From the NCBI GenBank assembly GCA_964431415.1, contig CAYSJS010000006.1, positions 252-64,251 on the forward strand: a DNA stretch of 64,000 nt, in the 5' to 3' direction. This document shows, piece by piece, positions 2,781 through 18,799 of the stretch; position 1 is the first letter of the stretch, and each line of letters begins with the position of its first letter. A model generated the notes under the pieces. The model saw only the letters and a program-made list of their open reading frames with translations. It was not told the DNA's origin and ran no database searches. Origin of the DNA: an uncultured Candidatus Saccharibacteria bacterium (GTDB taxonomy: Bacteria; Patescibacteriota; Saccharimonadia; Saccharimonadales; JACDBH01). The position numbers were made by a program, and so were the translations under genes.

Positions 2781-2792
2781 TACTCTATTACA

Positions 2793-3860
2793 ATGAAACA
2801 TTCTGAAGAAGAATGGACTCTTGTAGAACGGCGTGCCGAGGCGCTTCAGGATTTTTTTGCAGAAAATAACGTTCCGATCCGGGACCAATTACCGTTTGCG
2901 TACTACAACTTGCAGGCACCACCCAACTCATTACCGGAGTGGACGCTTCCTTATTTTGATCGTGGCGTCTTGCCGCAAGGTGGCTACGGTGACTTTGATC
3001 TAGAAAAAGTTGACGGCTACGGCAGTTTGCTTGTACCTAATTTTGCTAAGAGGAGTCATGGGCTTGCGCCGATGCTGGACGCAGCTAAACCGCTCGCAGA
3101 TACGATTATTGAAGGCCTTAAAACTGGATCATTTCTTGTTTCGTCTAACCATCCTACGCTCCCAACTCCAATCTTGATTGCACGTTCAATAATAGAGGCG
3201 GTTGGTGACGAGATACCGGACATTCAAAAACGTATATACATTACGTACGGCATGTTGCCTGTTATGTTCAAATTCGATTTTGGCGTGGCAGAACTTTCTC
3301 CGGCGGCGTTTGCTGCCGGGCTGGGCAATGTGGCAGTAACGGCAGCTGTCTCGGACAGCAATATGCAGCCAAAAATGAAAGACTGGCAATCCGAGTATCG
3401 GAACTTTTATAAGGCGAATGTCGCCAGTTGGCTTGCGAGTGCGGGGAATATAGTTATCTTGGCGCTGAACGGCCAGAGAGATGTACATTTTAGTTCTTTC
3501 AATAAGAAGGCTCGTATGATTCATCAGCCAGAGGGTGAACTCGATGCTTTTGTGCAGGCAGGCGCGCAGTTTGTTAATTTCGCTGTGTACGACAAGCTGC
3601 TCGAGGACCCTGTGCAAATAGGAAGCCCGGTAGAGATCTACGCCAATCCGCGCGTTAGACCGATTACATTAGAGGAATTAAGAAGCTCAAATAAGTGGCA
3701 AAAGGAAATGCTTCGGTCCACATTTGATGGTACGCCCTACTATCACGAGGGAGTAAGCGAAATGGCTGTCAGGCTGACTGATCGCCGCAGGGAAATAGAA
3801 GCAAGCATAACATCGGCAGCGAAGTCAGTATTAGATCGTGTAAAAAATAGAGGCGGTTAG
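2793..3860 (+). CDS. Hypothetical protein (355 aa)
   Basis: Long ORF with normal composition, packed tightly after the LexA-like gene. No motif recognised. Confidence 0.5.
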   Translation: MKHSEEEWTLVERRAEALQDFFAENNVPIRDQLPFAYYNLQAPPNSLPEWTLPYFDRGVLPQGGYGDFDLEKVDGYGSLLVPNFAKRSHGLAPMLDAAKPLADTIIEGLKTGSFLVSSNHPTLPTPILIARSIIEAVGDEIPDIQKRIYITYGMLPVMFKFDFGVAELSPAAFAAGLGNVAVTAAVSDSNMQPKMKDWQSEYRNFYKANVASWLASAGNIVILALNGQRDVHFSSFNKKARMIHQPEGELDAFVQAGAQFVNFAVYDKLLEDPVQIGSPVEIYANPRVRPITLEELRSSNKWQKEMLRSTFDGTPYYHEGVSEMAVRLTDRRREIEASITSAAKSVLDRVKNRGG

Positions 3861-5903: not shown

Positions 5904-8900
5904 TTAAAATCCAAATATTTTCTGCAGTGAGTTAATGATGACGGTTAAGATACTGTCGGATGCGCGTCCGATGATGGTTGACTGTGGTTCGCCTAGGCCG
6001 GCATTGCCGCCGCGGTCTCGGGATACAGGTTGAACGCTGTAAACCTTAGAGGTTGGAAGGTCTGAGATGATCACGATATGTTCCGTGGTGAGTTCGCCGT
6101 CTTCTGAAGTCTTGCTGTTGAATATAGATACATTTGATCCTTCGCCGTAGGCCACTTGGCTGGAAGAAGGCTCGTCGGTCTTCCAGGATACGATGATCTG
6201 GCCTCTTGCCTCTGCGCCCGAACCGCGAATCGACGATTCCACAGTAATGTCACTTACCTTCGGCGGTCTAGTGTCGAGAGCGGTCTTGAATACCTGACGA
6301 TCAGACACCGCTAAGTTACCTGCGGCATCGCGGCTCTGTGCAAGCAAGAAGTATTCGCTGTCATCTTCGAGGTTGCTGATCGTTATCTCGTGGTCTGTTA
6401 CTAGGCCGGATTTTTGTACGTCAATACCAGAAGAATTCACTTTGCCGTAGGTAACGGTTGTATTAGAGGGTACATTTGTTTGCCAAGTTACACTCTGAGT
6501 ACTTGTAGGTTCCCCTGTAACCGGCTGGAATCGCAGGTTTATGATACGCGGTCTTTGCGGCGTGGTGAACGAGAAGACGTTGCCAAAATATTCGCTGCCT
6601 TCGCTGTCGAAAGCACTGATGCGGAAGAAATATTTGGTGCCGTCATCTAGACCACTTAATGCGAACGAGTATTTAGACTCCGCACTTGAGGTGTTTATCG
6701 ACTGCAGTCCGCCGAAGCTTTCACTCTTACCGTAGTACAAGGTCACCTTGCTGGCGCCGTTGCTAACAAACTGTATCACTGCCGAAGATAGGCTGACGCT
6801 CACTGTTTCGACCTCTTTAACAACCGGAGCCGGAGCGGTTGTAAAGGTAAACTCTTGGCTTGTGCCCGTGTTGCCGTCTTCGTCTGTCCACTTTGCGACG
6901 TAGTAATATGTGGTACCGGCCGAAAGATTATCGAGCTGAATAGTGTGTAGGTTGATCTGAGTCGAGTTACCGATCTCAGAGCTGCCATACTGACCGCTTG
7001 TCGTGCCCAGGGCTATCTTTGAATCGCTGGCGCGGTCTGTCGCCCAGGTGATGGTCGCTTTCTTGGTTGTTAGATTACTTGCCGAGGGGTCGCTTGTAAG
7101 AGTCGCCGGACTGGTAAATTTGCCCGTTGGCAGCATCTGCACAACGGTGCTTTCTGAGCCACAGTTGTTTGTGCTGTCACAAGCCCGCACTTTGTAGTAA
7201 TACAACTGTTGGTTTAATCCGGCGTCGATATACGTAGTACTGGTACTGCTGCCGACAAAAGAGAATGCAACGTTATTGGTCGACCGTAATACCTTGTAAC
7301 TTGCTATGCCCGCACCGGTGTCGACCGGCGAGTCCCAGGTGATTGCCAGCCGCCAGTTGCTGGTGGACTTGATCGACACGTCAACGATATCGGTGTTTGT
7401 AGGGATCCCCGGGCTAGGCGTGTTGGCAGTAAAATCAACGGTCGCGAAGCTGGAGTAGTTAATATTATCCGACTCATCCTTGGCCACGACATAAAACGTG
7501 TTAGTTCCCGGCTGTGTCGCGTATGGGCCCGAACCGAGGCTTGTCACGCCCGCAGAAGTGTAGGCGCAGGTAGTAGGGCTTGGAAGCGTATTAATGGTGT
7601 AGCAATAGGTAAGGTGATTAACGTCACCGACAAAACTATTTGGAGCATTCCAAGAGAATGCAAAGGCATTGGTCGTGTTTGATGCAGGCGTTGCATGTAC
7701 GTTCTGTGGCTCACTTGGAGAGCCAGCCGTGTTTACCTTTAGGGCGGCCGTTACGTAGCCGCTGGTTACGTTTCCGGCGTTGTCCCAGGTTCTAAAGTAG
7801 ACCGTATTAACTCCTTCAATAATATTGTTGAAGTCTGTAGGATCGACGGTTACATAGCTGCCGTCATCAGCGAGAAGGTCGGTCATGTCACCGCTGCCTG
7901 TATGGTTGTCGCCGTACCAGGAAGAGGCGTTGATGCGGTATTGCAGACCGGCTACGCCTGACGCCGTATCGCTTGTTGCTTGCCCGCCGCTTGTAGGCCA
8001 GGTGAGAGTGGTTGACTTTGTGTTAATGAATCCCGAGGGGGCCGTGATAAACCCGGGGTTTGTGGGCGGGGTGTTATCAAATCTAAAGTGAAACTCAGCA
8101 CTGGTTCCAAAAATATTGCCCGCGTTGTCTATGGCCCGAACCAGTAGATAGTAAGAGCTGTTAGATGTGGTAAGCGGCGAGCCCATATACCCAGCAGTAG
8201 ATAGATCTACTGAGTTTCCGGAAACGGCAAACTGACAATGGCCGGCTGTGTCTAAGGGTGAAGTGCCCAGGAGTCCTTTAGTGGTTGTCGGATCGGCGGA
8301 GCTGTTAGTGCCAAGATACAGGCAATACCCCTTTATGCCTGATCCGGTATCTGTGCCGGCCGTCCATGAAAAGTAAGGAGAAGAGCCGTTTGTCCAGTCG
8401 TTTGTATTCAGCTCCGTTCCGCCGTTTGTTTTATATCCGTGTAATGCTGAAGCGTTTGTATTCGGCGCTGACAAATCAGAGGTTGCGGCGAGGTCGATAG
8501 TGTTGAGGGTTACCTGCTGAGTCCCGTTGCCTTTTAATACAGCCTGCCATCTTATGCCATAGAGGGTAGCAGGAAAGGTGGCAATGTTGGTGCCTATGAC
8601 GGCTGCGGTATTAGACTGTGCTAATCCGGATGATGTTACCCAGCCGCTGTTCCAGTATTTCCATGTCGTACCATTATCATCAGATAACCGGTATGTAATC
8701 GCCCCGCCGTTAGCTGTTTCGTCGCTGGTGAAATTATCCCAATGAGCGACTCCGCTAGTGCGTACTGCGGCAGCTAAGGTAATAGCCTGGTGATTTGCGC
8801 TATACGGGAGTGTGTTAAAAGACCCGCGGGCAATGTTGCTGATCCGCAGCTCATCAAGCATACCTTCAAAAAAGGCTCGACTCCATCCCGTCTCAGAGGG

Positions 8901-11900
8901 CCCAAAGTTCGTACCGATCAGGGCAGGCTGCGTGGTGTCCGGCATCGTCAAGGAAACTGAAGTCTGTGCGTCTACTACGCCGTCTACGTAGAGTTTCATG
9001 GTGGTGCCGTCATACGTGGCGGCAATATGATGCCAGGAAGTGTCCTGAGAGCCGACGGTACTCTGCAGGAATCCGTTGTTTCCGTATGACCAAACAGCTG
9101 CATCGGTGTTGGCGCTGTCGCCAAGCCCGGCGTACAGCTTCCCTTTATAGACACTAAAGCTGCGCACCGATTCGGTGGCATTTGCGGTCCAGCTTGAGTT
9201 TGTGCCGCCGCCACCTATCTTTGACCAGCTGGAACCGTCCATTTCCCACACCTCACCGTCCCCGGCACTATTACCAAGCCCGGCATACAGCTTGCCATTG
9301 TAGGTAACAAGTGATTTTACCTGCTCGTATTGTCCGTCCAGCCAGCTGCCATTTACGCCGTCTCCGCCTACAATGCTCCAAGCCGTACCCGTCCATTCCC
9401 AGAGCTCGGCGTCTCCGGTTGAGTTACCAAGCCCGGCATACAGCTTGCCATTATAGGGGATCATCGACTCGACTTGTTCGTAAACGGTATTCCAGCTACT
9501 GTTCACGCCATCTCCGCCAATTTTCGCCCAAGACGAGCCATTCCATCTCCAAACCTCAGCATCTCCTGCGGTCAGGCCCAAGCCTGCATAGAGCTGACCA
9601 TCATACACCGATAATGAGCTAACCCGTTCGAAGTTTGTCGTCCAGCCGCTGTTTAAGCTGTCTCCGCCAATTTTCGCCCAAGACGAGCCATTCCACATCC
9701 ACACTTCCGCATCGTTAGCGGAGTTGCCTATCCCGGCGTAAAGATTGCCAGCGAGAACTGCCATAGAAGAAACTTCTTCAAAGTTTGTCGTCCAGCCACT
9801 GTTTAAGCTGTCTCCACCGATTTGGTTCCACGTTGAGCCGTCATATTTCCACACTTCCGCATCGTTTGCGCTCGTGCCTAACCCTACGTACAGATTGCCG
9901 CCGAAGCTGATCATACTTGTCACGTCCTCGTAAGTAGTCGCAGCCCAACTGTTATTTATTCCTTGGCCACCGACAATTTGCCACGAATTGCCGTCGAACC
10001 TCCATACCAGCGCGTTGCCGGCAACTGTGTTTCCGGTGCCAGCATAGAGGTAGCTTCCATACACTGTCATGCTTTCAACGTTTTGGATGTTATAACCGCC
10101 CCAGCTTTTGTTAATGTAACCACCGCCGATTCTTGTCCATGAGCCGCTCGTAAAGCTCCACACCTCGGCGTTGTTGCCTGTTGCTATTAGCCCGGCATAC
10201 AGAGTACTGTTACCGTAGCTCAATGCGTTCACTTCTATGTGCGTATTCGTAAAGCCGCCGTTCACGCCGTCACCGCCAATTTTCGCCCAAGACGAGCCAT
10301 TCCACATCCACACCTCGTTGTCCCCGGCAGATAAGCCTAGTCCGGCATACAGATTCGTTCCGTCATCGGTAAAGCTATAAACCCCTTCGTAAGATACTGC
10401 ATCCCATCCGCTGTTGAGATTATCGCCGCCGATCTTCGCCCAAGACGAGCCATTCCACATCCACACCTCACCGTCCCCGGCTGTTGTACCCAATCCAGCG
10501 TACAGATTGCCGCCAAAATAACGCATGCTGATCACCGACTCGTAGGTGGACGCCGCCCAGCTTGAGTTAACTGCGTCCCCGCCAATCTGGGTCCATGTTG
10601 TGCCAGTTAGTCTCCAAACGTCAGCGTCGCCAGCAGTACTGCCGAAGCCTACATAAATGCTTGAACCGTCGTTGGACATACTGTAGACCGCCTCGTAGCC
10701 GGTGGGGAAAGCGTTATAGGCTCCTGTAATACCAAAGCCTCCTACCCATGTCCAGGTTGAGCCATTCCATGCATACACCTTTGAGTCATTGGCGGTCGTC
10801 CCAAGCCCAACGTAGAGCGTGGAACCCAAAACGGTCATACTGTCTACCTCTTCTATGGTGTTAACTGCCCAGCTGTTATTTATGCCGTCACCGCCAATCT
10901 TAGTCCAGGACGTACAGCCGGTGCCCGTATCACAGCTCCAAACTTCACCGTCGCCAGCCGTTGAACCAAGCCCCGCGTAGAGAATTGTTCCACTGTAATT
11001 TAGCGTCGTTACGTTTTCGAAGGTAAGATCGGCCCAACTATTATTCTTGCCGTCCCCGCCAATCTGGGTCCACGTTGAGCCGTCCCATTTCCATACTTCA
11101 GCATCTCCAACTGCGTTGCCGAGTCCGACATACAGGTTACCACCGATAAACTGCTCGGCGTTTACAGAAAGCTTTCCGTTTAAATCCCAACTGTTCTTTG
11201 TGTCGTTGCCAGCTTGCTGTGTCCAGGTGGTCGCGGTCGAATTTGCTAGCTCATATGTTATTTTCCCGGTCTCTTGGTCGTAGTAGAGTTTGTACGAACC
11301 TTTGTCTATAACCGATTGTTTATGGTCGTGGCTGCCCGCACTAAAGGGTGCGCTAAATTTTGTCCACGCTTCAATACTGTTATCTCTAGATAATGAGGTG
11401 GCGGCAGAATCCGGTATGCTGGCGTATGCCGTTGAGCCGTTTAGTGAAAGGCCGTTGTTTAAGTTGCCGGTTATAAAGGTGCCATTGGTTACGGATGCAT
11501 TATTAGTATTGGATGAACCGTCGGTAGCTATGGCTCCACTTGCTTCATCGAAATGATAGAGGGCTGCGGTATTAACGTCACTCGTGTAATTCTGGGCTTT
11601 GAGGCGCGCACTTGTACCGCTGACTTCTACACCGGCATCCAGTGTAAAGCTGGCTGGTGCACTAAAATCCCAAGAATTAAATAGGTCGGATGCAGCGAGC
11701 ACCTTACCATAAGAAAGAGCGACCAAAGTGCCCACTACGGCAAGGTATACGCCCAATACCGAATAATGAATGTGCTTATGGAACTTCCAGTCATGCCAGT
11801 TTCGATACCAGTTCCATTTGTTGTATAGGTGATTATGGGGACGTTTCGCAAGGTGATGGTGTAAGAACCGAGTGGTGATCTTAGTATAGTGGTGCGTCTT

Positions 11901-12020
11901 TTTGACGGTAATGACAGTCAGTTTTTTGGTAAACCCCAGGAGCTTTTTTGAGTAGGGTTTAAAAACCCTCTTATAAAGAAGTTGCGTCTTCCTTGCTGTT
12001 TTATGAATTTTATCCCTCAA
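5904..12020 (-). CDS. Giant N-terminally anchored surface protein (2038 aa): basic/His-rich tail, TM helix, LamG-like module, about 14 tandem propeller-like blades, second LamG-like module, multiple Fn3/Ig-like domains
   Basis: Single uninterrupted ORF. TM helix YSVLGVYLAVVGTLVALSYG. Blade motif LYAGLGxxxGDAEVWxWNGSSWxKIGGDxxNSxW repeats about every 52 aa. LamG-like WHHIAATYDGTTMKLYVDG...LDELRISN. C-terminal repeats such as GTTYYYVAKWTDEDGNTGTSQEFTFTT are Fn3-like. Stop lies 2 nt from the ABC ATPase start. Confidence 0.85.
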   Translation of the reverse strand: MRDKIHKTARKTQLLYKRVFKPYSKKLLGFTKKLTVITVKKTHHYTKITTRFLHHHLAKRPHNHLYNKWNWYRNWHDWKFHKHIHYSVLGVYLAVVGTLVALSYGKVLAASDLFNSWDFSAPASFTLDAGVEVSGTSARLKAQNYTSDVNTAALYHFDEASGAIATDGSSNTNNASVTNGTFITGNLNNGLSLNGSTAYASIPDSAATSLSRDNSIEAWTKFSAPFSAGSHDHKQSVIDKGSYKLYYDQETGKITYELANSTATTWTQQAGNDTKNSWDLNGKLSVNAEQFIGGNLYVGLGNAVGDAEVWKWDGSTWTQIGGDGKNNSWADLTFENVTTLNYSGTILYAGLGSTAGDGEVWSCDTGTGCTSWTKIGGDGINNSWAVNTIEEVDSMTVLGSTLYVGLGTTANDSKVYAWNGSTWTWVGGFGITGAYNAFPTGYEAVYSMSNDGSSIYVGFGSTAGDADVWRLTGTTWTQIGGDAVNSSWAASTYESVISMRYFGGNLYAGLGTTAGDGEVWMWNGSSWAKIGGDNLNSGWDAVSYEGVYSFTDDGTNLYAGLGLSAGDNEVWMWNGSSWAKIGGDGVNGGFTNTHIEVNALSYGNSTLYAGLIATGNNAEVWSFTSGSWTRIGGGYINKSWGGYNIQNVESMTVYGSYLYAGTGNTVAGNALVWRFDGNSWQIVGGQGINNSWAATTYEDVTSMISFGGNLYVGLGTSANDAEVWKYDGSTWNQIGGDSLNSGWTTNFEEVSSMAVLAGNLYAGIGNSANDAEVWMWNGSSWAKIGGDSLNSGWTTNFERVSSLSVYDGQLYAGLGLTAGDAEVWRWNGSSWAKIGGDGVNSSWNTVYEQVESMIPYNGKLYAGLGNSTGDAELWEWTGTAWSIVGGDGVNGSWLDGQYEQVKSLVTYNGKLYAGLGNSAGDGEVWEMDGSSWSKIGGGGTNSSWTANATESVRSFSVYKGKLYAGLGDSANTDAAVWSYGNNGFLQSTVGSQDTSWHHIAATYDGTTMKLYVDGVVDAQTSVSLTMPDTTQPALIGTNFGPSETGWSRAFFEGMLDELRISNIARGSFNTLPYSANHQAITLAAAVRTSGVAHWDNFTSDETANGGAITYRLSDDNGTTWKYWNSGWVTSSGLAQSNTAAVIGTNIATFPATLYGIRWQAVLKGNGTQQVTLNTIDLAATSDLSAPNTNASALHGYKTNGGTELNTNDWTNGSSPYFSWTAGTDTGSGIKGYCLYLGTNSSADPTTTKGLLGTSPLDTAGHCQFAVSGNSVDLSTAGYMGSPLTTSNSSYYLLVRAIDNAGNIFGTSAEFHFRFDNTPPTNPGFITAPSGFINTKSTTLTWPTSGGQATSDTASGVAGLQYRINASSWYGDNHTGSGDMTDLLADDGSYVTVDPTDFNNIIEGVNTVYFRTWDNAGNVTSGYVTAALKVNTAGSPSEPQNVHATPASNTTNAFAFSWNAPNSFVGDVNHLTYCYTINTLPSPTTCAYTSAGVTSLGSGPYATQPGTNTFYVVAKDESDNINYSSFATVDFTANTPSPGIPTNTDIVDVSIKSTSNWRLAITWDSPVDTGAGIASYKVLRSTNNVAFSFVGSSTSTTYIDAGLNQQLYYYKVRACDSTNNCGSESTVVQMLPTGKFTSPATLTSDPSASNLTTKKATITWATDRASDSKIALGTTSGQYGSSEIGNSTQINLHTIQLDNLSAGTTYYYVAKWTDEDGNTGTSQEFTFTTAPAPVVKEVETVSVSLSSAVIQFVSNGASKVTLYYGKSESFGGLQSINTSSAESKYSFALSGLDDGTKYFFRISAFDSEGSEYFGNVFSFTTPQRPRIINLRFQPVTGEPTSTQSVTWQTNVPSNTTVTYGKVNSSGIDVQKSGLVTDHEITISNLEDDSEYFLLAQSRDAAGNLAVSDRQVFKTALDTRPPKVSDITVESSIRGSGAEARGQIIVSWKTDEPSSSQVAYGEGSNVSIFNSKTSEDGELTTEHIVIISDLPTSKVYSVQPVSRDRGGNAGLGEPQSTIIGRASDSILTVIINSLQKIFGF
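9060..11240 (-). repeat. Intragenic tandem repeat region (about 14 units of about 156 nt) encoding the blades of the giant protein
   Basis: Repeat periodicity is visible in the translation. At nucleotide level TTCGCCCAAGACGAGCCATTCCA occurs 4 times (near 9530, 9680, 10288, 10443). Confidence 0.8.
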
Positions 12021-12159
12021 AACACACCAGCTTCTAGTTACTTTCCTACCTGTTATACATCATAACAAAAAAACATCATTTTGGTTATGTTTATGATTAT
12101 ATAGTGCGGGCAGTTTTAAAGGGGTGTAGAGTATAGCACCGTAATATCTTTCAAGGAGG

Positions 12160-12188
12160 TTGACCATTACCCTGTAAAAACATATAAT
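12160..12188 (+). promoter_or_regulatory. Near-consensus sigma70-type promoter (TTGACC-17 nt-TATAAT) in front of the tRNA 5'-half copy, GIY-YIG gene and tRNA-Asn
   Basis: TTGACC at 12160-12165, a 17-nt spacer, TATAAT at 12183-12188. Predicted start is about 15 nt before the tRNA-like 5' end at 12211. Confidence 0.5.
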
Positions 12189-12210
12189 CTTACTCTGTAC
12201 AGAGACATAT

Positions 12211-12251
12211 TCCGACTTAGCTCTCCGCCAGCTGGCGGAGGTAGAGCGGGA
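12211..12251 (+). pseudogene. Duplicated 5' half of tRNA-Asn with the D-loop replaced by the palindrome TCCGCCAGCTGGCGGA
   Basis: 12207-12223 is identical to 12494-12510, and 12240-12251 is identical to 12514-12525 of the intact tRNA. Similarity ends at the start of the anticodon stem. Confidence 0.6.
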
Positions 12252-12258
12252 GAAAAAG

Positions 12259-12507
12259 ATGTTTTATGTATATGCAATCTTTAACAAACAAGTGGGTAAG
12301 CTGTATATTGGCCAGACGATTGATATTCGACAGCGTCTCATCGATCACAATGCGCATACTCACAAAGGCTATACGTCTCGATTCTTGGGCGAATGGGAGC
12401 TGATTTATACGGAATTCCTCCCTACTCGTACTGAAGCGCTTGTGCGAGAAAAGCAGCTAAAAAGTTTCAGAGGCAGGCAATTTGTTAAAAAATATATTCC
12501 GACTTAG
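12259..12507 (+). CDS. Small GIY-YIG nuclease superfamily protein (82 aa, UPF0213/COG2827-like)
   Basis: FYVYAIFNKQVGKLYIGQT (GIY...YIG), RLIDHN, and REKQLKSFRGRQFVKK (conserved Arg/Glu region). GGGAG Shine-Dalgarno 6 nt upstream. The stop codon TAG at 12505-12507 lies inside the tRNA. Confidence 0.8.
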   Translation: MFYVYAIFNKQVGKLYIGQTIDIRQRLIDHNAHTHKGYTSRFLGEWELIYTEFLPTRTEALVREKQLKSFRGRQFVKKYIPT

Positions 12508-12572
12508 CTCAGTGGTAGAGCGGGACGCTGTTAACGTCTAGGTCGCTGGTTCGAGCCCAGCAGTCGGAGCCA
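12498..12572 (+). tRNA. tRNA-Asn (anticodon GUU), CCA encoded
   Basis: Manual cloverleaf: acceptor TCCGACT/AGTCGGA, D arm GCTC-AGTGGTA-GAGC, anticodon arm GGACG-CTGTTAA-CGTCT, T arm GCTGG-TTCGAGC-CCAGC, discriminator G plus CCA. Confidence 0.9.
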
Positions 12573-12735
12573 GACCAAGCAGAGAAAAACGTAGACCCAG
12601 TTCTATGACCTACAATAACTTCTCTCCTTGGTCAGTCAAGAAAGAGTTGGGCCGACAACAGGGTACAAATGTTGGAACCGCCCGAAAGGGCGGTTCTTTC
12701 ATTTTACCCCTGTAATTTAGTTCGAACCCAGCCTC
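12564..12735 (+). repeat. Copy 1 of a roughly 170-bp tRNA-trailer module (tRNA 3' end, stem-loop, terminator, GGTTCGAACC box)
   Basis: Blocks shared with 16304-16468: CGGAGCCAGACCAAGCAGAGAAA, CGTAGAC.CAGTTCTA.GACC, ACTTCTCTCCTT.GTC, AAATGTTGGAACCG, CGGTTCTTTCATTTTACCCCTGT, GTTCGAACC. Confidence 0.8.
12674..12705 (+). terminator. Rho-independent terminator after tRNA-Asn
   Basis: GAACCGCCC-GAAA-GGGCGGTTC followed by TTTCATTTT. Confidence 0.7.
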
Positions 12736-12796
12736 TCCCGTCCTGAAGGAGCAAGCACCCCAAAAGCTGACCCGTTCCCTAGACCTGTGCGCTTGG

Positions 12797-13510
12797 TTAA
12801 ACGACCTGAACCCAGTCATTGACTTGGTTTGCTGAAGTGTCGGAAGACGGATCGACAGAACGTTTCCATGTAAGTTCCATGCCTTCGACTGCTCCTGAAG
12901 TTGGATTGATGTTTGTATAGTGGACAACTTGACCATTATGTATAGAATCTGTATCTACGTCTTCTATTTTGTCGAGAGCTAGTTTATCTAAAGGCGCATG
13001 TGCAGCCCATAAAACATCGCGGTGGGTCATAACTAGTATGTTATTCGTATTGGCGAGGTCGTTAACTAACTCTCCAAATCGGTGCGAGACAGCCAGGATA
13101 GATTCTCCGCCTGGTGGAACCCAGTAGAAAGGATGGTCTTCCATCGATTGATAACTATCCGGAAACTTTTCCTTATGTTGCTGCTTGGTTAGTCCCTGAA
13201 TATCACCGCGATTTCTCTCAGTGAGTCTGGGCTCTTTTATCCAATCTCCACCAAAGCCTAACGATTCTGCAGACTGTTTGGTGCGAATAAGTGGTGAAGT
13301 CAGGTATGTATCAAATTTCTTAAAGTCATAAACCTGCATGATATACTTTGCAATCCAACGTCCCGTTATCTGTGATTGTCTATGGCCAGCCTCAGTCTGT
13401 TTTTCATCGTTAGGGTGAATAAGGGCATGTGTGCCTAGCTTTCGCCTGACATCACCTTCGCTTTCACCGTGACGAACAAGTACTAAGTGTCGTGGCTGCA
13501 ATAACTCCAT
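12797..13510 (-). CDS. Histidine phosphatase family protein (phosphoglycerate-mutase-like)
   Basis: LVLVRHGESEGD (RHG motif), a downstream HRD-containing region (VMTHRDVL), 237 aa. Confidence 0.8.
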   Translation of the reverse strand: MELLQPRHLVLVRHGESEGDVRRKLGTHALIHPNDEKQTEAGHRQSQITGRWIAKYIMQVYDFKKFDTYLTSPLIRTKQSAESLGFGGDWIKEPRLTERNRGDIQGLTKQQHKEKFPDSYQSMEDHPFYWVPPGGESILAVSHRFGELVNDLANTNNILVMTHRDVLWAAHAPLDKLALDKIEDVDTDSIHNGQVVHYTNINPTSGAVEGMELTWKRSVDPSSDTSANQVNDWVQVV

Positions 13511-13513
13511 GAG

Positions 13514-14713
13514 TTAGACCATAGCATATAAACTTTTATCTTTGAGTCGTCGATGAATGTAGATGAGCACAACGAATGCAGCTGCTGCTAATAGTACAAG
13601 CGCCAAGGAGTAGGAATGCATACGTTGGTATGTAAAACCTAATATCAGTGGCGGCAAGAATCCGCCAAAGCCACCAGCAGCACCCACGATACCAGTAACG
13701 CTACCCATGACTTCTGGCTTTGCAAGCTTACCAACCATTGCAAATACAGCCCCATTAGCACAGCCAAGTACGAAGGCTAAAGTTAGATATGCGATGGTTG
13801 TCTGTGGCTCGAGGGTTGGCTGGAAGGCAACAAATGCCGCAAGAGGAATAATAGTGCAGAGAGTGGCTTGTACGACACGCCTGGCACCAACTTTATCACT
13901 CAGCCACCCACCAACCGGCCGTGCAATCGTGGCGAGTAATACAAATCCAGCCGCCCGTGTAGCAGCGTCAGTAAGCGATAAACCGTAAGAAACCTTAAGT
14001 AGAACAGGCAAATATACACCAAAAGCAACAAAAGCACCGAACGTTACAGCATAAACAGATGATAAATCCCATGTGAGCCGTAGCTTCGAAGCTGCAACTA
14101 TCCGCAAAATAGAAGATCCTTTTGCGGGCTTCCATCCCGGAGCATTTTTACCCCAAAATATAAAAACCATCGCCATAATTATCAATAAACTAGCTACAAT
14201 CATAAATGTCATATCTCTGTCAAAGTTATCTGCAAGTCGTGGTGTAGCAAATCCTGATAATGCCGTTCCGGCATTGCCCATACTGTACACACCTAGAACA
14301 AATCCTCTTCTCTCTGGCGGAAACCATGCGCTAATAAATGGGATACCAATAACAAATGCCGCGCCACCAAAACCGAGAAATATGGCGGCAACCACGATCT
14401 GCCAATAGTCGCCTGCGAACGTTAACGCAAAAACTGGGATTGCGGTCAATAAAGATATAACCGTAAACATCGTTTTACCACCAAATTTATCGGTTAACAT
14501 GCCAAATGCTATACGGCCTAAAGAACCAACGATAACTGGTACGGCCAGAAGTAACGATAGCATTACAGGGGTTAGAGTTAGTTCGCCGGCAAGCTTTGCA
14601 CCAAGGGGGCTCAATAGCGACCAAGCCCAAAAATTAATAATGAGTGCTAGTGTTGCGATACAAAGAGCAAAATATGCACCTTGAACTGACTTTATTTTTT
14701 TTGTTTTTGGCAT
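13514..14713 (-). CDS. MFS transporter, nitrate/nitrite-porter (NarK/NNP)-like
   Basis: 12 TM pattern; MFS motif A FGMLTDKFGGKT; Gly-rich NNP-like boxes SMGNAGTALSG and GIVGAAGGFGGFLPP. Start trimmed to MPKTKK (ATG at 14713) so that it does not overlap the upstream gene. Confidence 0.65.
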   Translation of the reverse strand: MPKTKKIKSVQGAYFALCIATLALIINFWAWSLLSPLGAKLAGELTLTPVMLSLLLAVPVIVGSLGRIAFGMLTDKFGGKTMFTVISLLTAIPVFALTFAGDYWQIVVAAIFLGFGGAAFVIGIPFISAWFPPERRGFVLGVYSMGNAGTALSGFATPRLADNFDRDMTFMIVASLLIIMAMVFIFWGKNAPGWKPAKGSSILRIVAASKLRLTWDLSSVYAVTFGAFVAFGVYLPVLLKVSYGLSLTDAATRAAGFVLLATIARPVGGWLSDKVGARRVVQATLCTIIPLAAFVAFQPTLEPQTTIAYLTLAFVLGCANGAVFAMVGKLAKPEVMGSVTGIVGAAGGFGGFLPPLILGFTYQRMHSYSLALVLLAAAAFVVLIYIHRRLKDKSLYAMV

Positions 14714-14717
14714 ATCA

Positions 14718-16184
14718 TTATATTGCTGCTTCCCAGTCAAAGAACACGGTGTCCTCACGGTAACCTCCACGTCCTTGACCAAAGTTTTCAAAACTCTCGA
14801 CAAACTCAATCGATTTTATATATTTTGCCATTTTATAGCCGTATTTCTTTTCACATCGCAAGCGAAGTGGTGCACCATACTCGATAGGTAGTGTTTTGCC
14901 GTTCATCTCATATGCAAGAATTGTCTGTTTATCATACATATCGCTGACACGTAATCCTGAATAATATGCCTGACCCTTGTCGTCGATATCGTAACAATGA
15001 AACAGCACATACTTTGCATTCTTCTTCGGCTTACAAATCTCCATAACATCGCTCATAGGCAAACCACCCCACTCAGCGACTGCAGTCCATCCCTGAATGC
15101 AATTATGCTTAGTGATTTGGTCTTGTTTACGTAAATCTTTAATATCTTGAAGTGACATTTCGATGGGATTATCGACTAGTCCGTAAACACTTAATATCCA
15201 ATCTTTGAAATGATTGGCTTTGAGTTTTTCATATTCTTCAGATTTTGGAGGATAGCCATTGACTCTAAAGAACGGTGAAATGTCTTTTTTTGTGTAGTGC
15301 TGATTAGACTTCATTCTTCCGAACAATAGACGCACCACAGGCGTATAAAACTTCGTGAGGATTCGTCGTAAGCGTACTTGATCGCCAAGTGTGAAAAATG
15401 AAACCCAAATATTAAAGGCAACTAGCAAAATCAGCGCCATCAAGAATATTGTGAGCGCCAGGGCAAAATCTACATCTGTGTTGCCTAGTGTTATACGTTT
15501 TACGCTATCGTAGAAGTGGAAACCAAGCGCCATTGTTACGTGCACGAGTATGAATAGCGAGAACAGAACCATCGCAATAAAGTGCAAACTCCTCGCAACC
15601 TGACGACGACCGCCAAATAGCTTGAGAAATCCTGGGTGTTTTGCTACCAGTGCTGGGGATAGCGCTAAACCAGTAATAATTGCTAACGGCGCCAGTATGA
15701 AAACCACACCTGCATAAGTTAGTTGCTGCAGGGCGTTATATGTCGCACCCTCTGAAGGCACGTTTAGCGTCAAATATTGGTACATGGTATCAATTGCGCG
15801 CGAGAAAACACCAATGTCAGTAGGGATCAAACGCTGCCATTGTCCGCTGAAGAACAAAAAGCTCATGTAAATTAAGCCCGTTATTACCCAGATGATAGCT
15901 ACTGTGAAGTGCCAATGTCGTGCAGAACCCAAGTTATGGGTACCGCCAGGTAATGCAAGCTTACCTGGTTCTTCTGCTTCATCTAGAGATGTCCAAAGCT
16001 TATCCTTGGGCATAATTTTCTTACCAAAACGTAACCAGTGATTGTCGTCTTTGGTATCATCGGTCCAGTACAGTTTAGGGTGATCAAAAAGTATTTGTAT
16101 ACCGCTCCGAATAAGCAAGACGAGGCAGAATAGATTAATCAAATGTAGAATTATTATAAATATTGGCAGATGTAGCGTTTCCAT
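14718..16184 (-). CDS. Fusion of a cytochrome-b-like membrane domain with a molybdopterin-binding oxidoreductase domain (sulfite-oxidase/MsrP family)
   Basis: The N-terminal 280 aa have 5-6 TM helices with conserved His residues. The C-terminus ITKHNCIQGWTAVAEWGGLPMSDVM...YEMNGKTLPIEYGAPLRLRCEKKYGYKMAKYIKSIEF matches the Mo-pterin oxidoreductase domain. Confidence 0.7.
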   Translation of the reverse strand: METLHLPIFIIILHLINLFCLVLLIRSGIQILFDHPKLYWTDDTKDDNHWLRFGKKIMPKDKLWTSLDEAEEPGKLALPGGTHNLGSARHWHFTVAIIWVITGLIYMSFLFFSGQWQRLIPTDIGVFSRAIDTMYQYLTLNVPSEGATYNALQQLTYAGVVFILAPLAIITGLALSPALVAKHPGFLKLFGGRRQVARSLHFIAMVLFSLFILVHVTMALGFHFYDSVKRITLGNTDVDFALALTIFLMALILLVAFNIWVSFFTLGDQVRLRRILTKFYTPVVRLLFGRMKSNQHYTKKDISPFFRVNGYPPKSEEYEKLKANHFKDWILSVYGLVDNPIEMSLQDIKDLRKQDQITKHNCIQGWTAVAEWGGLPMSDVMEICKPKKNAKYVLFHCYDIDDKGQAYYSGLRVSDMYDKQTILAYEMNGKTLPIEYGAPLRLRCEKKYGYKMAKYIKSIEFVESFENFGQGRGGYREDTVFFDWEAAI

Positions 16185-16269
16185 ATATATAAATATACCG
16201 CTTATCTATTATTATTGATAACACTACACAAATTAACAGATGTAAGCTAGTATGAAGCGAGCCTAAAAT

Positions 16270-16312
16270 CAGGTGGTAGAATCACTTGGTTCGAATCTGG
16301 TTGCCGGAGCCA
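16270..16312 (+). pseudogene. tRNA-like remnant (D-loop-like and T-arm-like segments, acceptor 3' strand plus CCA, no anticodon arm)
   Basis: TCAGGTGGTAGAATCACTTGGTTCGAATCTGGTTGCCGGAGCCA. There is no matching 5' acceptor strand upstream, and it runs directly into trailer-module copy 2. Confidence 0.45.
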
Positions 16313-16468
16313 GACCAAGCAGAGAAACTCGTAGACTCAGTTCTACGACCAAGAATTACTTCTCTCCTTAGTCTTACGAATAAGATTTTCTCAAAAAGAA
16401 GATTGAAATGTTGGAACCGTCAGAAATGGCGGTTCTTTCATTTTACCCCTGTTGTTTGGTTCGAACCT
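16304..16468 (+). repeat. Copy 2 of the roughly 170-bp tRNA-trailer module
   Basis: See copy 1. Includes a terminator hairpin whose differences from copy 1 preserve pairing. Confidence 0.8.
16413..16444 (+). terminator. Rho-independent terminator (copy 2 of the trailer module)
   Basis: GAACCGTCA-GAAA-TGGCGGTTC followed by TTTCATTTT. Relative to copy 1, one pair changes C:G to A:T (both sides changed) and one changes C:G to T:G. Confidence 0.65.
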
Positions 16469-16548
16469 TGTCCTTCATTTGCCTTAGCAACAAGTAGCCA
16501 AAAACAGACCTGTTTCCATGATAGTAAATTGCAAACTATAATATATTC

Positions 16549-17499
16549 ATGAATTCTTACCAAATTCACTCGATCCTTGAGTCACCCGATGCCTGGCTTT
16601 TTAGTGCTACGACCTCACCAAAGATTTGCAAAGAACTCGAATTTGTTGATCCAAAAGAGCATGGAAAAACACGACATCTTGTAAGTTACGAATGCGAAGC
16701 GGAAAACTTGAATGGGGCGTGGAAAAGCTTCTATAAAGTTGTCACTGAATTTCTTGATGCGGCAGTATTTTATACAACCAGCTATATTTCATTTCTTGAT
16801 TGGAACCACGTAGTTATTAATACCACCCAGAATGTTTCATTAATCTCACTTTATGAGAGGACCTTAGGAACCTCCCTAGATTTTTATAGCGAAGAACGAA
16901 CCGATAGTGTGCAAAATATCCGAGATTTCGCCCAAAAAGATATCCGTCTCGCAAACTTTTTACATTGTTATCGCATGGCGGTTCTAGTTGACTCACCAGA
17001 AACGTACGATGCATATGAAAAGTACTTAATTCTTGCGTGTGAGGCACTTGCCGGAGAGATCAAAGACGTAGACGGTAATGTTAAGTACGACAGAAAACGG
17101 CTTCAAAGCATTCTTGGGAAAGAGCTACACAAAAAGTTCTTCAGTCATGTTGATGGCACATCGGGTAAAACTGTAAGGAATGCGCATTTTCATCTTGGTA
17201 AAGTAATGGTGACGGAGGGTAAGCCACGTAAAGTAATTGAGTTGGTTAATCAGCTTAGGCAGTTTATTGCCAGTGAGTACGGTATAACTGATTTACCTAT
17301 ACTCAGGATTGAGAATTCGCCCACTAGAGGCATGCATCGAGACGATGGTGGCATTGTAGTTATTAGAGGTCAGTACGACAATCCTCAAATACTCATGGAA
17401 AACTGTGAGCCCAATAAAGTATTTGATGATTTGATAGACAAGAAAGATTACGAAATACTATCAGGACCTGAGGCCAGCTCTGCTGTAAATTCTATGTAG
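16549..17499 (+). CDS. Hypothetical protein (316 aa) with an RNxxxH (Rx4H, HEPN-like) motif
   Basis: Long ORF in the AT-rich island. GKTVRNAHFHLG contains Rx4H. No other motif recognised. Its 3' end overlaps the convergent recombinase gene by 8 nt. Confidence 0.5.
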   Translation: MNSYQIHSILESPDAWLFSATTSPKICKELEFVDPKEHGKTRHLVSYECEAENLNGAWKSFYKVVTEFLDAAVFYTTSYISFLDWNHVVINTTQNVSLISLYERTLGTSLDFYSEERTDSVQNIRDFAQKDIRLANFLHCYRMAVLVDSPETYDAYEKYLILACEALAGEIKDVDGNVKYDRKRLQSILGKELHKKFFSHVDGTSGKTVRNAHFHLGKVMVTEGKPRKVIELVNQLRQFIASEYGITDLPILRIENSPTRGMHRDDGGIVVIRGQYDNPQILMENCEPNKVFDDLIDKKDYEILSGPEASSAVNSM

Positions 17500-18799
17500 C
17501 CTTTCTGAACCGTAATACACCTTTCTTTATCTCCATTGTCGTCTCAAATCCTTCCGCCAGAGCACCCTTCTCAAATTCCGTTCCGCTACTCAGCACGTAT
17601 CTTGAATATTCTACTAACGGTACGCTTAAATTTACCTCAACTTTATAGTGGTTTAGCAATGTTTTCGTTACATAGTAATGCTTGTCGACCTTAGCTTGTA
17701 GCTTATTGGTGATTTTAATCTTCTTATAATTAGCTTCGATGAAGGTCTGAAGCAGGTCGCAAAGATTGTTTTCATTAATATACTTTTCTTTACAATTTGG
17801 ATCTTTACGCCTTGTGCAGTTGTAGTAGACGAATCGTTTTACGTCTCCTTTTTTCAATGTCTTAAACTTCTCCTGTGCGGTAATATCTGCCCCGCATTGT
17901 CCGCATTTCAGTAATCCTCGGAATGCGAATGCTTTCGATCCCCAGATGCCTTTGTTAACGCCGCGAGTTTGCTGCACAAGATCGTATAACTCTTTAGAAA
18001 TGAGCGGTTTATGAGCCCCGTCATACCAAGGAGCATCAGGGGCTTGCGGATATTGAAACTTTCCGTAGTAGAACGGGGTCGTCAATATTACAAGTACTTG
18101 GCTCACACTTACTTGCTTACCGGATCTGTTAGTTAGACCTTGTTCGTCTAACCACGCCTTTATTCTTCGACCGCTCCATCGCTCATAGCCAGCTTTATGA
18201 AATGCTTCTCGTACTAGGTCGGCACGCTCAGGGTCAAGAACGATATCGTTGATGCCGCCTAATGCTCGATTCATATAGCCGAGTGGGGCAACGCCTGGAC
18301 GCCAACCCATTTCACATTTTGTCCTAATACCACGTTTTACATTGATACTCTTATTGTCATTCTCGAGTTTTGCTTGCGAGCACAATATCATCAGTAAGAA
18401 TTTTTCATTTGGGTTATTCGTGAAGGTTTGCGAATAAGTTCTTATGTGCAGTAATTTACCTTGATCCATGAGATCAACGACTGCTCCTAAGTCCCCCGCA
18501 TTTCTGCTTAGTCTATCGGGCGCCCATGTGAGAATAGCGTTATATTCTTCACTAGCTAAACCTTTTAGAAGTTTGTTATATACCGGGCGCTTGCCAGAGT
18601 CTTTCGCAGAGTGGCTCTCTTGTAATTCACAGACTACGTTAAGACCTTCATTCTCCGCAAGTGAACGCATCTCGGCCAGTTGCGAGTCGATGCTCATCGC
18701 TTGACGTTCGTCTGATTCACTCGATTTTCTAGCATACAGGCAGTACTTGAGTTGGATTTCTTTTTCCATCAAGGACAAAGGTACCGCAATATTGGGCAA
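17492..18799 (-). CDS. Large serine recombinase (resolvase catalytic domain, recombinase domain, zinc ribbon)
   Basis: YCLYARKSSESDERQAMSIDSQ (catalytic Ser region), LTWAPDRLSRN, central recombinase domain, and CGQCGADITAQEK...YYNCTRRKDPNC zinc ribbon. The real start may be the internal MEKEIQ. Confidence 0.85.
   Translation of the reverse strand: MPNIAVPLSLMEKEIQLKYCLYARKSSESDERQAMSIDSQLAEMRSLAENEGLNVVCELQESHSAKDSGKRPVYNKLLKGLASEEYNAILTWAPDRLSRNAGDLGAVVDLMDQGKLLHIRTYSQTFTNNPNEKFLLMILCSQAKLENDNKSINVKRGIRTKCEMGWRPGVAPLGYMNRALGGINDIVLDPERADLVREAFHKAGYERWSGRRIKAWLDEQGLTNRSGKQVSVSQVLVILTTPFYYGKFQYPQAPDAPWYDGAHKPLISKELYDLVQQTRGVNKGIWGSKAFAFRGLLKCGQCGADITAQEKFKTLKKGDVKRFVYYNCTRRKDPNCKEKYINENNLCDLLQTFIEANYKKIKITNKLQAKVDKHYYVTKTLLNHYKVEVNLSVPLVEYSRYVLSSGTEFEKGALAEGFETTMEIKKGVLRFRKAT

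Follow-up and report, generated by a model that had tools for sequence, protein, structure and literature searches.

In the mitochondria of fungi, endonuclease genes are known that reside in an essential gene and carry a replacement terminus for it. These mobile open reading frames (mORFs) occur in atp6 of Allomyces macrogynus and in atp6, atp9, cox2 and nad3 of Glomus (Beaudet et al. 2013, PMC3630166). In Patescibacteria, also named candidate phyla radiation (CPR), group I introns are common between positions 35 and 36 of tRNA-Asn, and some of the introns that interrupt tRNA-Asn and tRNA-Asp carry homing endonuclease genes, which are of the HNH type (Nakagawa et al. 2026, PMC13011429); GIY-YIG nucleases, palindromes and duplications are not mentioned there. 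GIY-YIG open reading frames (ORFs) have been found in non-intron insertions of CPR rRNA genes (Tsurumaki et al., PMC11270868), and these may be related to the family described in the following. Here, we analyze a stretch of 64,000 nucleotides (nt) from an uncultured Candidatus Saccharibacteria bacterium (contig CAYSJS010000006.1, positions 252 to 64,251; the window), in which a small GIY-YIG gene is located between an interrupted partial copy of tRNA-Asn and the intact tRNA-Asn gene. Literature searches found no published description of such a cassette.

We consider it probable that this region is the occupied allele of a small site-specific selfish element of ~290 base pairs (bp), which consists of a nuclease gene and a partial tRNA copy crippled by a hairpin. 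As judged from the sequence comparisons given below, the cassette is enclosed by the ancestral transcription unit of tRNA-Asn. Behind the old promoter, the former position of the tRNA is taken by the hairpin-marked 5' half, and an intact tRNA-Asn has been reconstituted 3' of the ORF, where it contributes the last codons and the stop. The feature belongs to a widespread class that is apparently undescribed.

Results

Architecture of the tRNA-Asn locus

The sole tRNA gene of the window is a tRNA-Asn(GUU) with an encoded CCA on the plus strand at positions 12498–12572 (ARAGORN; Rfam RF00005, 68.5 bits). It flanks, together with a pseudo 5' half of tRNA-Asn at 12211–12251 (plus strand), an ORF of 82 codons at 12259–12507 (plus strand), whose product is a GIY-YIG protein resembling UPF0213 and Slx1. 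The initial annotation, made from the sequence of the window, had noticed two stretches of identity between the tRNA copies, and sequence comparison confirmed both. The left arm of the pseudo-half, 12207–12223 (ATATTCCGACTTAGCTC), comprises the leader ATAT and tRNA nt 1–13 and is fully identical to 12494–12510; the right arm, 12240–12251 (GGTAGAGCGGGA), comprises tRNA nt 17–28 and is identical to 12514–12525. For a perfect repeat of 17 nt within 900 nt, the estimated chance expectation is ~2e-5. Between the arms, the D-loop nt 14–16 (AGT) are replaced by the GC-rich palindrome TCCGCCAGCTGGCGGA of 16 nt (12224–12239), and similarity to the tRNA stops at 12251, which is nt 28. Within the right copy of the 17-nt direct repeat lie the 3' end of the ORF with its stop codon and, at 12497/12498, the RNase P site. 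The last codons ATT CCG ACT TAG use tRNA nt 1–10, and the stop TAG (12505–12507) is U8-A9-G10 of the tRNA. Palindrome, end of similarity and position of the stop are thus as the annotation had described them.

The same is true for the sigma-70-type promoter TTGACC-17-TATAAT at 12160–12188 (plus strand), which matches at 11 of 12 positions, is the best site of the region and now leads into pseudo-half and ORF. The proposed origin of the ribosome binding site has to be restricted. A Shine-Dalgarno-like GGGAG can be read from the sequence at 12248–12252 (plus strand), 6 nt upstream of the ATG, and its GGGA is derived from the tRNA. However, this derivation is local to the lineage of the window and not general; many homologous loci contain a TGnTATAAT-type -10 box just before the ATG instead. 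A further site that resembles a promoter, TTAACA-17-TATATT (10 of 12 matches), was noticed within the ORF at 12281–12309. If active, it would yield a tRNA precursor that lacks the start of the ORF.

The minimum-energy fold of the presumed 380-nt co-transcript displays the 5' hairpin and the cloverleaf of the tRNA; with a z-score of only -1.6, however, it is not informative. An Rfam search of positions 11000–18000 at E-values up to 1 detected the tRNA and a spurious mir-4899 (24 bits compared to a threshold of 85 bits), which rules out a known RNA family for the pseudo-half and its hairpin. The unit does not have the features of an insertion sequence: it lacks a transposase, and its sole inverted repeat is the internal hairpin. 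It also contains no tyrosine or serine recombinase, the 82-aa (amino acid) ORF being its only one. The arrangement is unchanged in an independent assembly (L099; ENA sample ERZ27283041), which is 99.9% identical over window positions 11621–14714 (3.1 kb) and therefore rules out an assembly artefact. With a design that is common to 80 loci, chance is ruled out as well.

Occupied and empty alleles

Metagenome contigs were scanned for the anticodon arm of the window's tRNA lineage, which yielded ten loci. Nine of them are empty and have a plain tRNA-Asn right behind a TTGACx-17-TATAAT promoter. The tenth, L088, is occupied; an internal deletion has removed the catalytic core of its ORF, and a compensatory change is seen in the arms of its hairpin (TCCGGCAGCTGCCGGA). 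The tRNAs of the empty loci L081 and L084 are identical to that of the window, and the downstream flank of L084 is 87% identical to the window's. In L084, L081 and L082, the promoter is followed by 22 nt and then by tRNA nt 1. In the window, it is the pseudo-half that begins 22 nt past TATAAT. The pseudo-half therefore occupies the ancestral position of the tRNA, and the promoter at 12160–12188 is, according to the empty alleles, the ancestral promoter of tRNA-Asn.

Subtraction of the empty from the occupied allele gives a net insertion of 287 nt. In one of several equivalent phasings, this unit corresponds to 12224–12510 (plus strand) and contains, in this order, the hairpin, tRNA nt 17–28, a leader, the ORF, and a leader with tRNA nt 1–13. 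A second pair consists of L087 (empty) and L001 (occupied), which have promoter and tRNA in common and are 88% identical in the upstream flank. Judging by L001, the nearest occupied relative, the host of the window probably belongs to the Saccharibacteria lineage of the CPR. Presence and absence at one fixed site are thus seen for the window and L099 versus L084 and L081, and for L001 versus L087. L091, L092 and L096 are likewise empty and possess the cassette that follows the window's tRNA-Asn on the 3' side (see below). The existence of empty sites in close relatives (L084, L081, L087) supports the proposal of the initial annotation that a selfish cassette of ~290 bp has been inserted into tRNA-Asn.

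Two empty alleles, L089 (~430–535) and L092 (just 5' of tRNA-Asn), contain a GC-rich, apparently structured insert of ~90–100 nt after the promoter. The inserts share a GGAAGAGCAGCCC...GGCGCGATGAG motif and gave no Rfam match at the gathering threshold.

Distribution and layouts in the CPR

Further GIY-YIG/tRNA-half junctions, which the annotation had suggested looking for, are frequent. With each species represented by one genome, a scan confirmed 167 loci, so that at least 167 CPR species genomes are concerned, and the best 80 of the 167 loci, which were inspected in detail, have the same design. A protein search gave 352 clusters at 90% identity, mostly of exactly 82 aa; all clusters with an organism name belong to Patescibacteria or unclassified bacteria. 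The 80 inspected loci come from many CPR classes, and every title that names a CPR lineage names Patescibacteria. Typical CPR cassettes and CPR-type tRNA-Asn genes were also observed in metagenome-assembled genomes titled uncultured Gammaproteobacteria, Bdellovibrionales or Pseudomonadales (L014, L021, L024, L032, L036, L044, L047, L050, L052–L054, L059, L063, L064, L074–L076). These titles look mislabelled, because the same CPR cassette is present.

A partial tRNA-Asn copy with a hairpin precedes every ORF among the 80 loci. A tRNA-Asn(gtt) follows directly downstream in all of the ~66 resolvable loci, where neither the end of a contig nor masking by N nor an intron intervenes. The stop codon is formed by tRNA nt 8–10 in 47 of these 66 loci and by nt 19–21 in four. 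The design is a family trait across the CPR and extends beyond the single case of the window.

In 47 related loci that were measured, the unit has a length of 279–323 nt. The left arm corresponds to the local tRNA in nearly all of them, with one deviating base in L039 and L054. The direct repeat given by the left arm varies between 8 and 20 nt, and its leader part between 0 and 7 nt. A target-site duplication of fixed length is ruled out by this variable leader part; moreover, natural leaders already end in TAT. Three layouts can be distinguished, which track the subfamilies of the ORF. In layout A, that of the window, the hairpin replaces D-loop nt 14–16, and both arms usually match the local tRNA. 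In layout B, it replaces nt 9–11. In layout C, the whole D-arm is replaced and the copy extends to nt 35. Many contigs end within ~100 nt past the ORF, which is consistent with heterogeneity of the populations at this locus.

Decay, stacking and foreign pseudo-halves

Several loci bear traces of turnover. In addition to the internal deletion in L088, the ORF of L034 is interrupted by a premature stop at codon 5. ORF-less pseudo-halves with hairpin lie between ORF and tRNA in at least eight loci (L012, L032, L038, L046, L060, L063, L071, L077). In L080, a layout-A unit is followed by a layout-C-like unit, and their ORFs are just 60% identical. Decayed ORFs, ORF-less units and many empty sites are signs of a cycle in which the element invades, decays and is lost.

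In L059, L072 and L077, the part of the pseudo-half that corresponds to the anticodon stem agrees with the tRNA-Asn of another lineage in 9–10 of 10 positions, compared to 4–6 of 10 for the resident tRNA. Judging by sequence similarity, the right part is probably foreign in L055 and L028, too. A pseudo-half with a foreign right part is therefore not simply the displaced resident half and can travel with the ORF. In the window, both tRNA copies are identical to the local tRNA, which leaves the origin of each copy unassignable. The combination of a local left and a foreign right arm was considered as proof of a crossover at the hairpin. This argument is weakened by L072 and L077, where the acceptor sequences of donor and recipient are alike and the left arm cannot be assigned.

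The hairpin

The initial annotation had treated the palindrome as an incidental feature of the upstream copy. Instead, it is the most conserved part of the unit and the hallmark that defines the class: the exact sequence TCCGCC-N4-GGCGGA is found in 76 of the 80 inspected loci and near-variants in the other four. The stem of 6 bp is near-invariant, and the 4-nt loop varies (AGCT, GGCT, AACT, AGCC, AGTT, AATT). TCCGCCAGCTGGCGGA occurs once in the 64-kb window, and one 16-nt palindrome per window is about what is expected by chance; its significance is thus due to conservation at the same place in related loci and not to rarity. Five loci contain nested hairpins, one within the loop of another. 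By our own count, five of eight variants affecting a single arm are compatible with G·T pairing on the top strand, a weak hint that the hairpin of the sense strand matters. A correlation between the loop of the hairpin and the local D-loop sequence was not seen among related loci.

Copies of the hairpin away from a cassette were observed at L043:1562–1577, L049:299–314, L021:376–391 and L007:3337–3352. Their settings are the fmt gene, where the hairpin is translated in frame (IRQLAD, L043:1562), the Pro-rich C-terminal tail of a penicillin-binding protein, an intergenic region and a group I intron of tRNA-Asn. Since ~0.02 such copies are expected by chance in ~400 kb (an estimate), the hairpin behaves like a dispersed mini-palindrome. 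More complex derivatives lie 3' of the intact tRNA-Asn in two loci. L069:3345–3460 is a full-length pseudo-tRNA-Asn in which both the D-loop (by nested hairpins) and the T-arm are replaced. In L017, two pseudo 3' halves are each preceded by a hairpin (3388–3403 and 3556–3571).

The nuclease

The 82-residue product matches PF01541 (GIY-YIG) over residues 1–69 with an E-value of 7.8e-18 (65 bits compared to a cut-off of 22.6). Among 31 homologs, 22 columns are invariant. These include Y5, Y16-I17-G18, R26, H30 and E64, of which we take Y5, Y16, R26, H30 and E64 to be catalytic or metal-binding residues by analogy with I-TevI. The AlphaFold2 model (predicted local distance difference test score 96.2) suggests a three-stranded sheet with helices. 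Foldseek ranks BH0048 and Slx1 as the best matches of this model, with a TM score of 0.63–0.68 and a root-mean-square deviation of 2.5–2.9 Å for Slx1; the N-terminal domain of UvrC and the catalytic domain of I-TevI rank lower. By sequence, the closest solved relatives are the UPF0213 proteins EF2693 (E-value 1.4e-4) and BH0048 (9e-4). The structures of UPF0213 proteins are annotated as hypothetical proteins, and we know of no established function for this family.

Most ORFs are intact and under purifying selection. The ratio of nonsynonymous to synonymous divergence (dN/dS) is 0.04–0.22 in eleven pairs, even at dS values of 0.6–1.6. Based on its sequence, the protein looks functional. Seg proteins of phage T4 have more than 200 aa and a separate DNA-binding domain. 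A DNA-binding domain of the kind present in I-TevI and Seg is missing here, the catalytic match alone spanning residues 1–69 of 82. Specificity must therefore come from elsewhere, for example from a dimer, from DNA structure or from the hairpin.

A profile search of 1.84 billion representative proteins (50% identity) gave 913 relatives at E-values up to 1e-10 and 10,737 at E-values up to 1e-3. Among the 150 best-scoring relatives, nearly all are stand-alone proteins of 80–125 aa. In 19 of them, the over-called end translates the hairpin in one of three frames (PPAGG, RQLA, SASWR), and in many others it translates the tRNA. NCBIfam contained nothing above cut-off; the best model was a subfamily of group I intron endonucleases (27 bits compared to 56). 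No family member was detected on viral contigs of IMG/VR, where distant GIY-YIG proteins matched in the N-terminal 30–45 residues, and PHROGs gave weak N-terminal matches. A phage origin was ruled out on these grounds.

Sister cassettes at tRNA-Lys and in Planctomycetes

The genomic context was checked for three subfamilies, namely those at CPR tRNA-Asn, CPR tRNA-Lys and tRNA-Asn of Planctomycetes. The CPR subfamily at tRNA-Lys(UUU/CUU), L126–L131, has the identical hairpin and the same stop-in-tRNA design. In L126 (2040–2435), the order is promoter, tRNA-Lys nt 1–22, hairpin, anticodon loop through variable region, ORF and intact tRNA-Lys(UUU), whose nt 8–10 constitute the stop. L128 (1940–2324) and L131 (1940–2489) show the same design at tRNA-Lys(CUU) with extra ORF-less units. 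L132 (1847–2340) is mirrored: the intact tRNA is followed by the ORF and by a full-length, hairpin-crippled copy. Over-called ends were also noticed in the proteins P0174, P0231 and P0178, and their sequences suggest a further set at tRNA-Arg(UCU).

The order is mirrored as well in all three Planctomycetes genomes found, i.e. Pirellulimonas nuda (CP036291, L133:1190–1830), Anaerohalosphaera lusitana (CP019791, L134:1363–1815) and a member of the Phycisphaerales (CP070675, L135:1425–1850). The ORF starts right after the intact tRNA-Asn in two of the three; in L134 a terminator-like hairpin intervenes, and the start lies ~60 nt further on. The ORF terminates within a pseudo 3' part, where a 15-nt TCCGCC-N3-GGCGGA stands in place of the anticodon, and the TAA of the anticodon-loop TTAA serves as stop. 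P. nuda additionally contains three tandem ORF-less 5' units of 116 nt. The real anticodon stem of L134, GGCGG/CCGCC, equals the hairpin arms in swapped order and may hint at the origin of the hairpin. ARAGORN mis-calls the pseudo-copy of L134 as tRNA-Cys. In the same locus, a DUF2924 protein and a large serine recombinase are encoded at 2527–3276, ~0.75–1.2 kb 3' of the GIY-YIG/pseudo-tRNA-Asn; the recombinase may belong to another integrative element that uses the same tRNA.

Surroundings of the tRNA-Asn gene

A cassette of 3.7 kb (12573–16312) starts exactly at the 3' end of the window's tRNA-Asn, so that this gene has mobile DNA on either side. On the minus strand, it encodes a histidine phosphatase (12797–13510), an MFS transporter (13514–14809) and a molybdopterin oxidoreductase/cytochrome b (14718–16184). 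It is 99% identical in L092, 89% in L091 and 92–99% in L096–L098. In these contigs, the tRNA-Asn genes that precede it differ (acceptors TCCGGGG, TCCCGGG, TCCGGCG), as do its neighbours, and it looks like a horizontally mobile island without an integrase of its own. Its distal boundary is a pseudo tRNA-Asn 3' end at 16288–16312 (GGTTCGAATCTGGTTGCCGGAGCCA) from a different tRNA-Asn lineage, and the cassette copies of L091 and L092 have the same boundary. A search for an attR copy of the tRNA 3' end with up to three mismatches found none; the diverged copy at 16288–16312 emerged only by alignment. After this copy, the ~220-nt flank 12573–12790 recurs with 78% identity up to 16530. This flank contains a terminator-like hairpin (12674–12697, plus strand) ~100 nt past the tRNA, which is the probable end of the transcription unit and which is kept in the repeat at ~16410. 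In L084, a different cassette of ~3.5 kb is located between equivalent repeats.

Directly 5' of the GIY-YIG cassette, a 2038-aa ORF on the minus strand (5904–12020) was observed, which contains many 'GDGxNSW...LYAGLG' repeats and Ig/FN3-like regions. Hosts that share the 3.7-kb cassette have other neighbours at this place.

Discussion

A model for insertion and expression

If the cassette is a selfish element, its predicted nuclease would break the unoccupied tRNA-Asn gene, and the break would be repaired off the occupied copy, as in homing. Portable homology arms would be provided by the intact tRNA and by the segments of tRNA origin to the left and right of the hairpin. Topologically, this would equal one crossover by which the chromosomal tRNA recombines with a unit composed of crippled tRNA and ORF. 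A crossover to the left of the hairpin would lead to the CPR order of crippled copy, ORF and tRNA; a crossover to its right would lead to the mirrored order of tRNA, ORF and crippled copy seen in L132 and in Planctomycetes. One model would therefore cover both orders. Owing to the hairpin, the duplicate would neither work as a tRNA nor serve as a target, and direct repeats that could delete the element would be broken up; the hairpin may also be a binding site of the nuclease itself.

Messenger and tRNA precursor would be one transcript. Because the ORF overlaps with the tRNA, as it does in 47 of 66 loci, any complete mRNA would contain the RNase P site. Following this logic, cleavage at 12497/12498 would strip off the stop codon and create a non-stop message, whose ribosomes would be directed to tmRNA rescue, and the level of nuclease would be kept low. 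The relative L092 encodes SmpB, so tmRNA rescue is available there.

Some considerations weigh against the selfish element. Cleavage activity and target site are predictions. The intact tRNA of the occupied allele looks as cleavable as the empty allele, and an obvious immunity is not apparent. A left homology arm of 8–20 nt is short for recombination of the RecA type. The presence/absence polymorphism does not by itself prove a gain, because a precise deletion between the direct repeats could also create empty sites. The local right arm that is usual in layout A fits spread within a lineage or vertical descent no less than transfer. No vector is known, given that no family member was found on viral contigs in IMG/VR. 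Finally, purifying selection is strong over a synonymous divergence that is saturated; for a homing gene that is purely selfish this is unusual, and it would equally fit a host-beneficial or addictive role.

Alternative explanations

The last point leads to a domesticated or addictive gene. Nuclease gene and hairpin pseudo-half would then be an old, vertically inherited part of the CPR tRNA-Asn operon that is kept by its benefit, or by punishing its loss, and is repeatedly deleted. The low dN/dS values (0.04–0.22, even between pairs at dS 0.6–1.6), the occurrence in many CPR classes, the presence of mostly one unit per locus, and pseudo-half arms that in layout A usually both match the local tRNA are in line with this explanation, and the direct repeats of 13–20 nt would permit the precise loss that makes 'empty' sites. 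However, nine of ten relatives with the window's anticodon arm lack the cassette, the pseudo-halves of L059, L072 and L077 contain foreign segments, L080 stacks two units of differing layout, and the ORFs of L088 and L034 have decayed. Retargeting to tRNA-Lys is furthermore hard to square with one ancient operon, and we regard domestication as unlikely. Improbable, in our view, is a non-autonomous cassette that was placed in trans by an integrase or another recombinase, with the GIY-YIG protein as a passenger such as a defence or repair nuclease. The tRNA-Asn locus is indeed a hot spot of integration, as the 3.7-kb cassette directly 3' in the window illustrates; L134 has a large serine recombinase ~1.2 kb 3' of the cassette, and the direct repeats around the unit resemble att sites or target-site duplications. 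Their length of 8–20 nt, however, is not that of a fixed att core or target-site duplication, and a recombinase is neither contained in the unit nor regularly found next to it; its CPR neighbours vary from locus to locus. Across CPR and Planctomycetes, nothing but ORF and hairpin is constant.

The group I introns in the same gene raise the question whether the ORF is the remnant of an intron-encoded homing endonuclease at tRNA-Asn 35/36, whose ribozyme was lost and whose host gene was rescued by the tRNA duplication. In five cassette-bearing loci, the tRNA-Asn is also split after CTGT (35/36) by Rfam Intron_gpI, namely in L020 (3264–3514), L027 (3635–3879), L034 (1937–2185), L035 (3563–3839) and L048 (2895–3204), and layout-C pseudo-halves end exactly at this CTGT, which is nt 35. 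Such introns are, as mentioned, common in Patescibacteria (PMC13011429). On the other hand, cassette and intron co-occur in these genes as separate entities, no intron model matches the window at E-values up to 1 (Rfam), and the endonucleases of those introns are HNH and not GIY-YIG proteins (PMC13011429). Layouts A and B stop far short of nt 35, and for the tRNA-Lys cassettes no corresponding intron is known. An origin from an intron is thus very improbable. Independent of this question, two selfish elements, a cassette and a group I intron, were observed in one gene of 75 nt, the introns being in agreement with Nakagawa et al. 2026 (PMC13011429); probably, L005, L007, L022 and L095 contain group I introns as well.

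A further reading concerns targeting. The hairpin could be the handle of the nuclease, and the target could be specified by the flanking tRNA-identical segments, which would act through base pairing or else as homology arms. The 82-aa Slx1/UPF0213-like domain, the 16-nt hairpin and ~25 nt of target-derived sequence would then form a homing module that is self-contained and reprogrammable. This would explain how one nuclease clade was retargeted to tRNA-Asn, tRNA-Lys(UUU), tRNA-Lys(CUU) and probably tRNA-Arg(UCU) with one invariant hairpin, and also the differing positions of the hairpin within the crippled copy. We consider this handle rather unlikely, and there is a modest chance that the mechanism of targeting is categorically new. 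If the handle were real, the cassette would be the smallest autonomous protein-coding mobile element known to us, and its enzyme a GIY-YIG nuclease guided by nucleic acid or structure.

Implications

If the interpretation as a selfish element is true, a whole class of ~290-bp cassettes, found in at least 167 CPR species genomes and in 352 protein clusters, has gone unnoticed in genome annotation, which gives its ORF just the name 'GIY-YIG nuclease family protein'. These cassettes would parasitise essential, probably single-copy tRNA genes of the most streamlined bacteria known. The tRNA-Asn of the CPR would be contested by three kinds of mobile DNA, which are the cassette, group I introns at 35/36 and cassettes integrating at the 3' end. 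An 82-aa nuclease without a DNA-binding domain would have to find one tRNA gene, and the hairpin and the retargeting to tRNA-Lys make the question of how this is done testable. Cultured hosts with complete genomes are at hand for the mirrored form, namely P. nuda and A. lusitana. The cassette also accounts for several artefacts: ORFs over-called through tRNA or hairpin, the pseudo-tRNA of L134 mis-called as tRNA-Cys, and contigs that break at tRNA-Asn.

Comparison with known systems

GC-rich palindromic mini-elements include the PstI palindromes next to tRNA genes in Neurospora mitochondria, the GC clusters of yeast mitochondria and the Rickettsia palindromic elements. They are short, dispersed in low copy number and located next to tRNA genes, and they can lie in frame within protein genes, to which the fmt copy of L043 is a comparable case. 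Their sequences are unrelated to the hairpin, and we know of no mini-element that is tied to a specific nuclease gene or replaces an arm of a duplicated tRNA.

With respect to sequence and fold, UPF0213/YhbQ and the nuclease domain of Slx1 are closest, each being a single domain of ~80–100 aa. Slx1, a structure-specific nuclease, depends on Slx4 and on a RING domain. In contrast to the cassette, neither UPF0213 nor Slx1 has a known link to tRNA genes or to a hairpin in cis.

Integrative elements of the integrase type likewise target tRNA genes, restore an intact tRNA and leave a partial copy at the other junction. Their recombinase is of the tyrosine or serine type, the duplicated end is usually the 3' end, and they have a length of kilobases and an att core that is fixed, whereas the cassette has no recombinase, comprises ~290 bp, duplicates the 5' half and contains a partial copy interrupted by a hairpin. 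The group I introns at 35/36 of tRNA-Asn and tRNA-Asp (PMC13011429) share phylum and target gene with the cassette. However, they are self-splicing ribozymes within the anticodon loop, and a ribozyme was not detected in the cassette by Rfam.

Free-standing GIY-YIG genes among tRNA genes are represented by the Seg family of T4-like phages, with SegB in the tRNA gene cluster of T4 (PMC2330249). Seg genes spread by double-strand-break repair with co-conversion of the flanks, which for the cassette would be the analogous route. They are borne by a phage, in contrast to the present family and its absence from the viral contigs of IMG/VR. They are not known to overlap with or to duplicate a tRNA, or to have a hairpin.

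By analogy of design, mORFs of fungal mitochondria with their replacement gene terminus (PMC3630166) are the closest known kind. In both cases, a free-standing endonuclease ORF (LAGLIDADG or GIY-YIG in mORFs) resides within an essential gene, a part of which is duplicated, and the ORF is flanked by a functional hybrid copy and a displaced pseudo-copy. In both, the ORF can be in phase with and ended by host-gene sequence. One copy can be foreign in mORFs, and foreign segments are seen in the pseudo-halves of L059, L072 and L077. The host gene, in contrast, is a bacterial tRNA gene here and a mitochondrial protein gene there. The nuclease of the cassette has just 82 aa and no DNA-binding domain. 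The CPR cassettes duplicate the 5' part of the gene, and the mirrored form of L132 and Planctomycetes duplicates the 3' part. The displaced copy of the cassette, finally, always bears a conserved GC-rich hairpin, for which mORFs have no counterpart.

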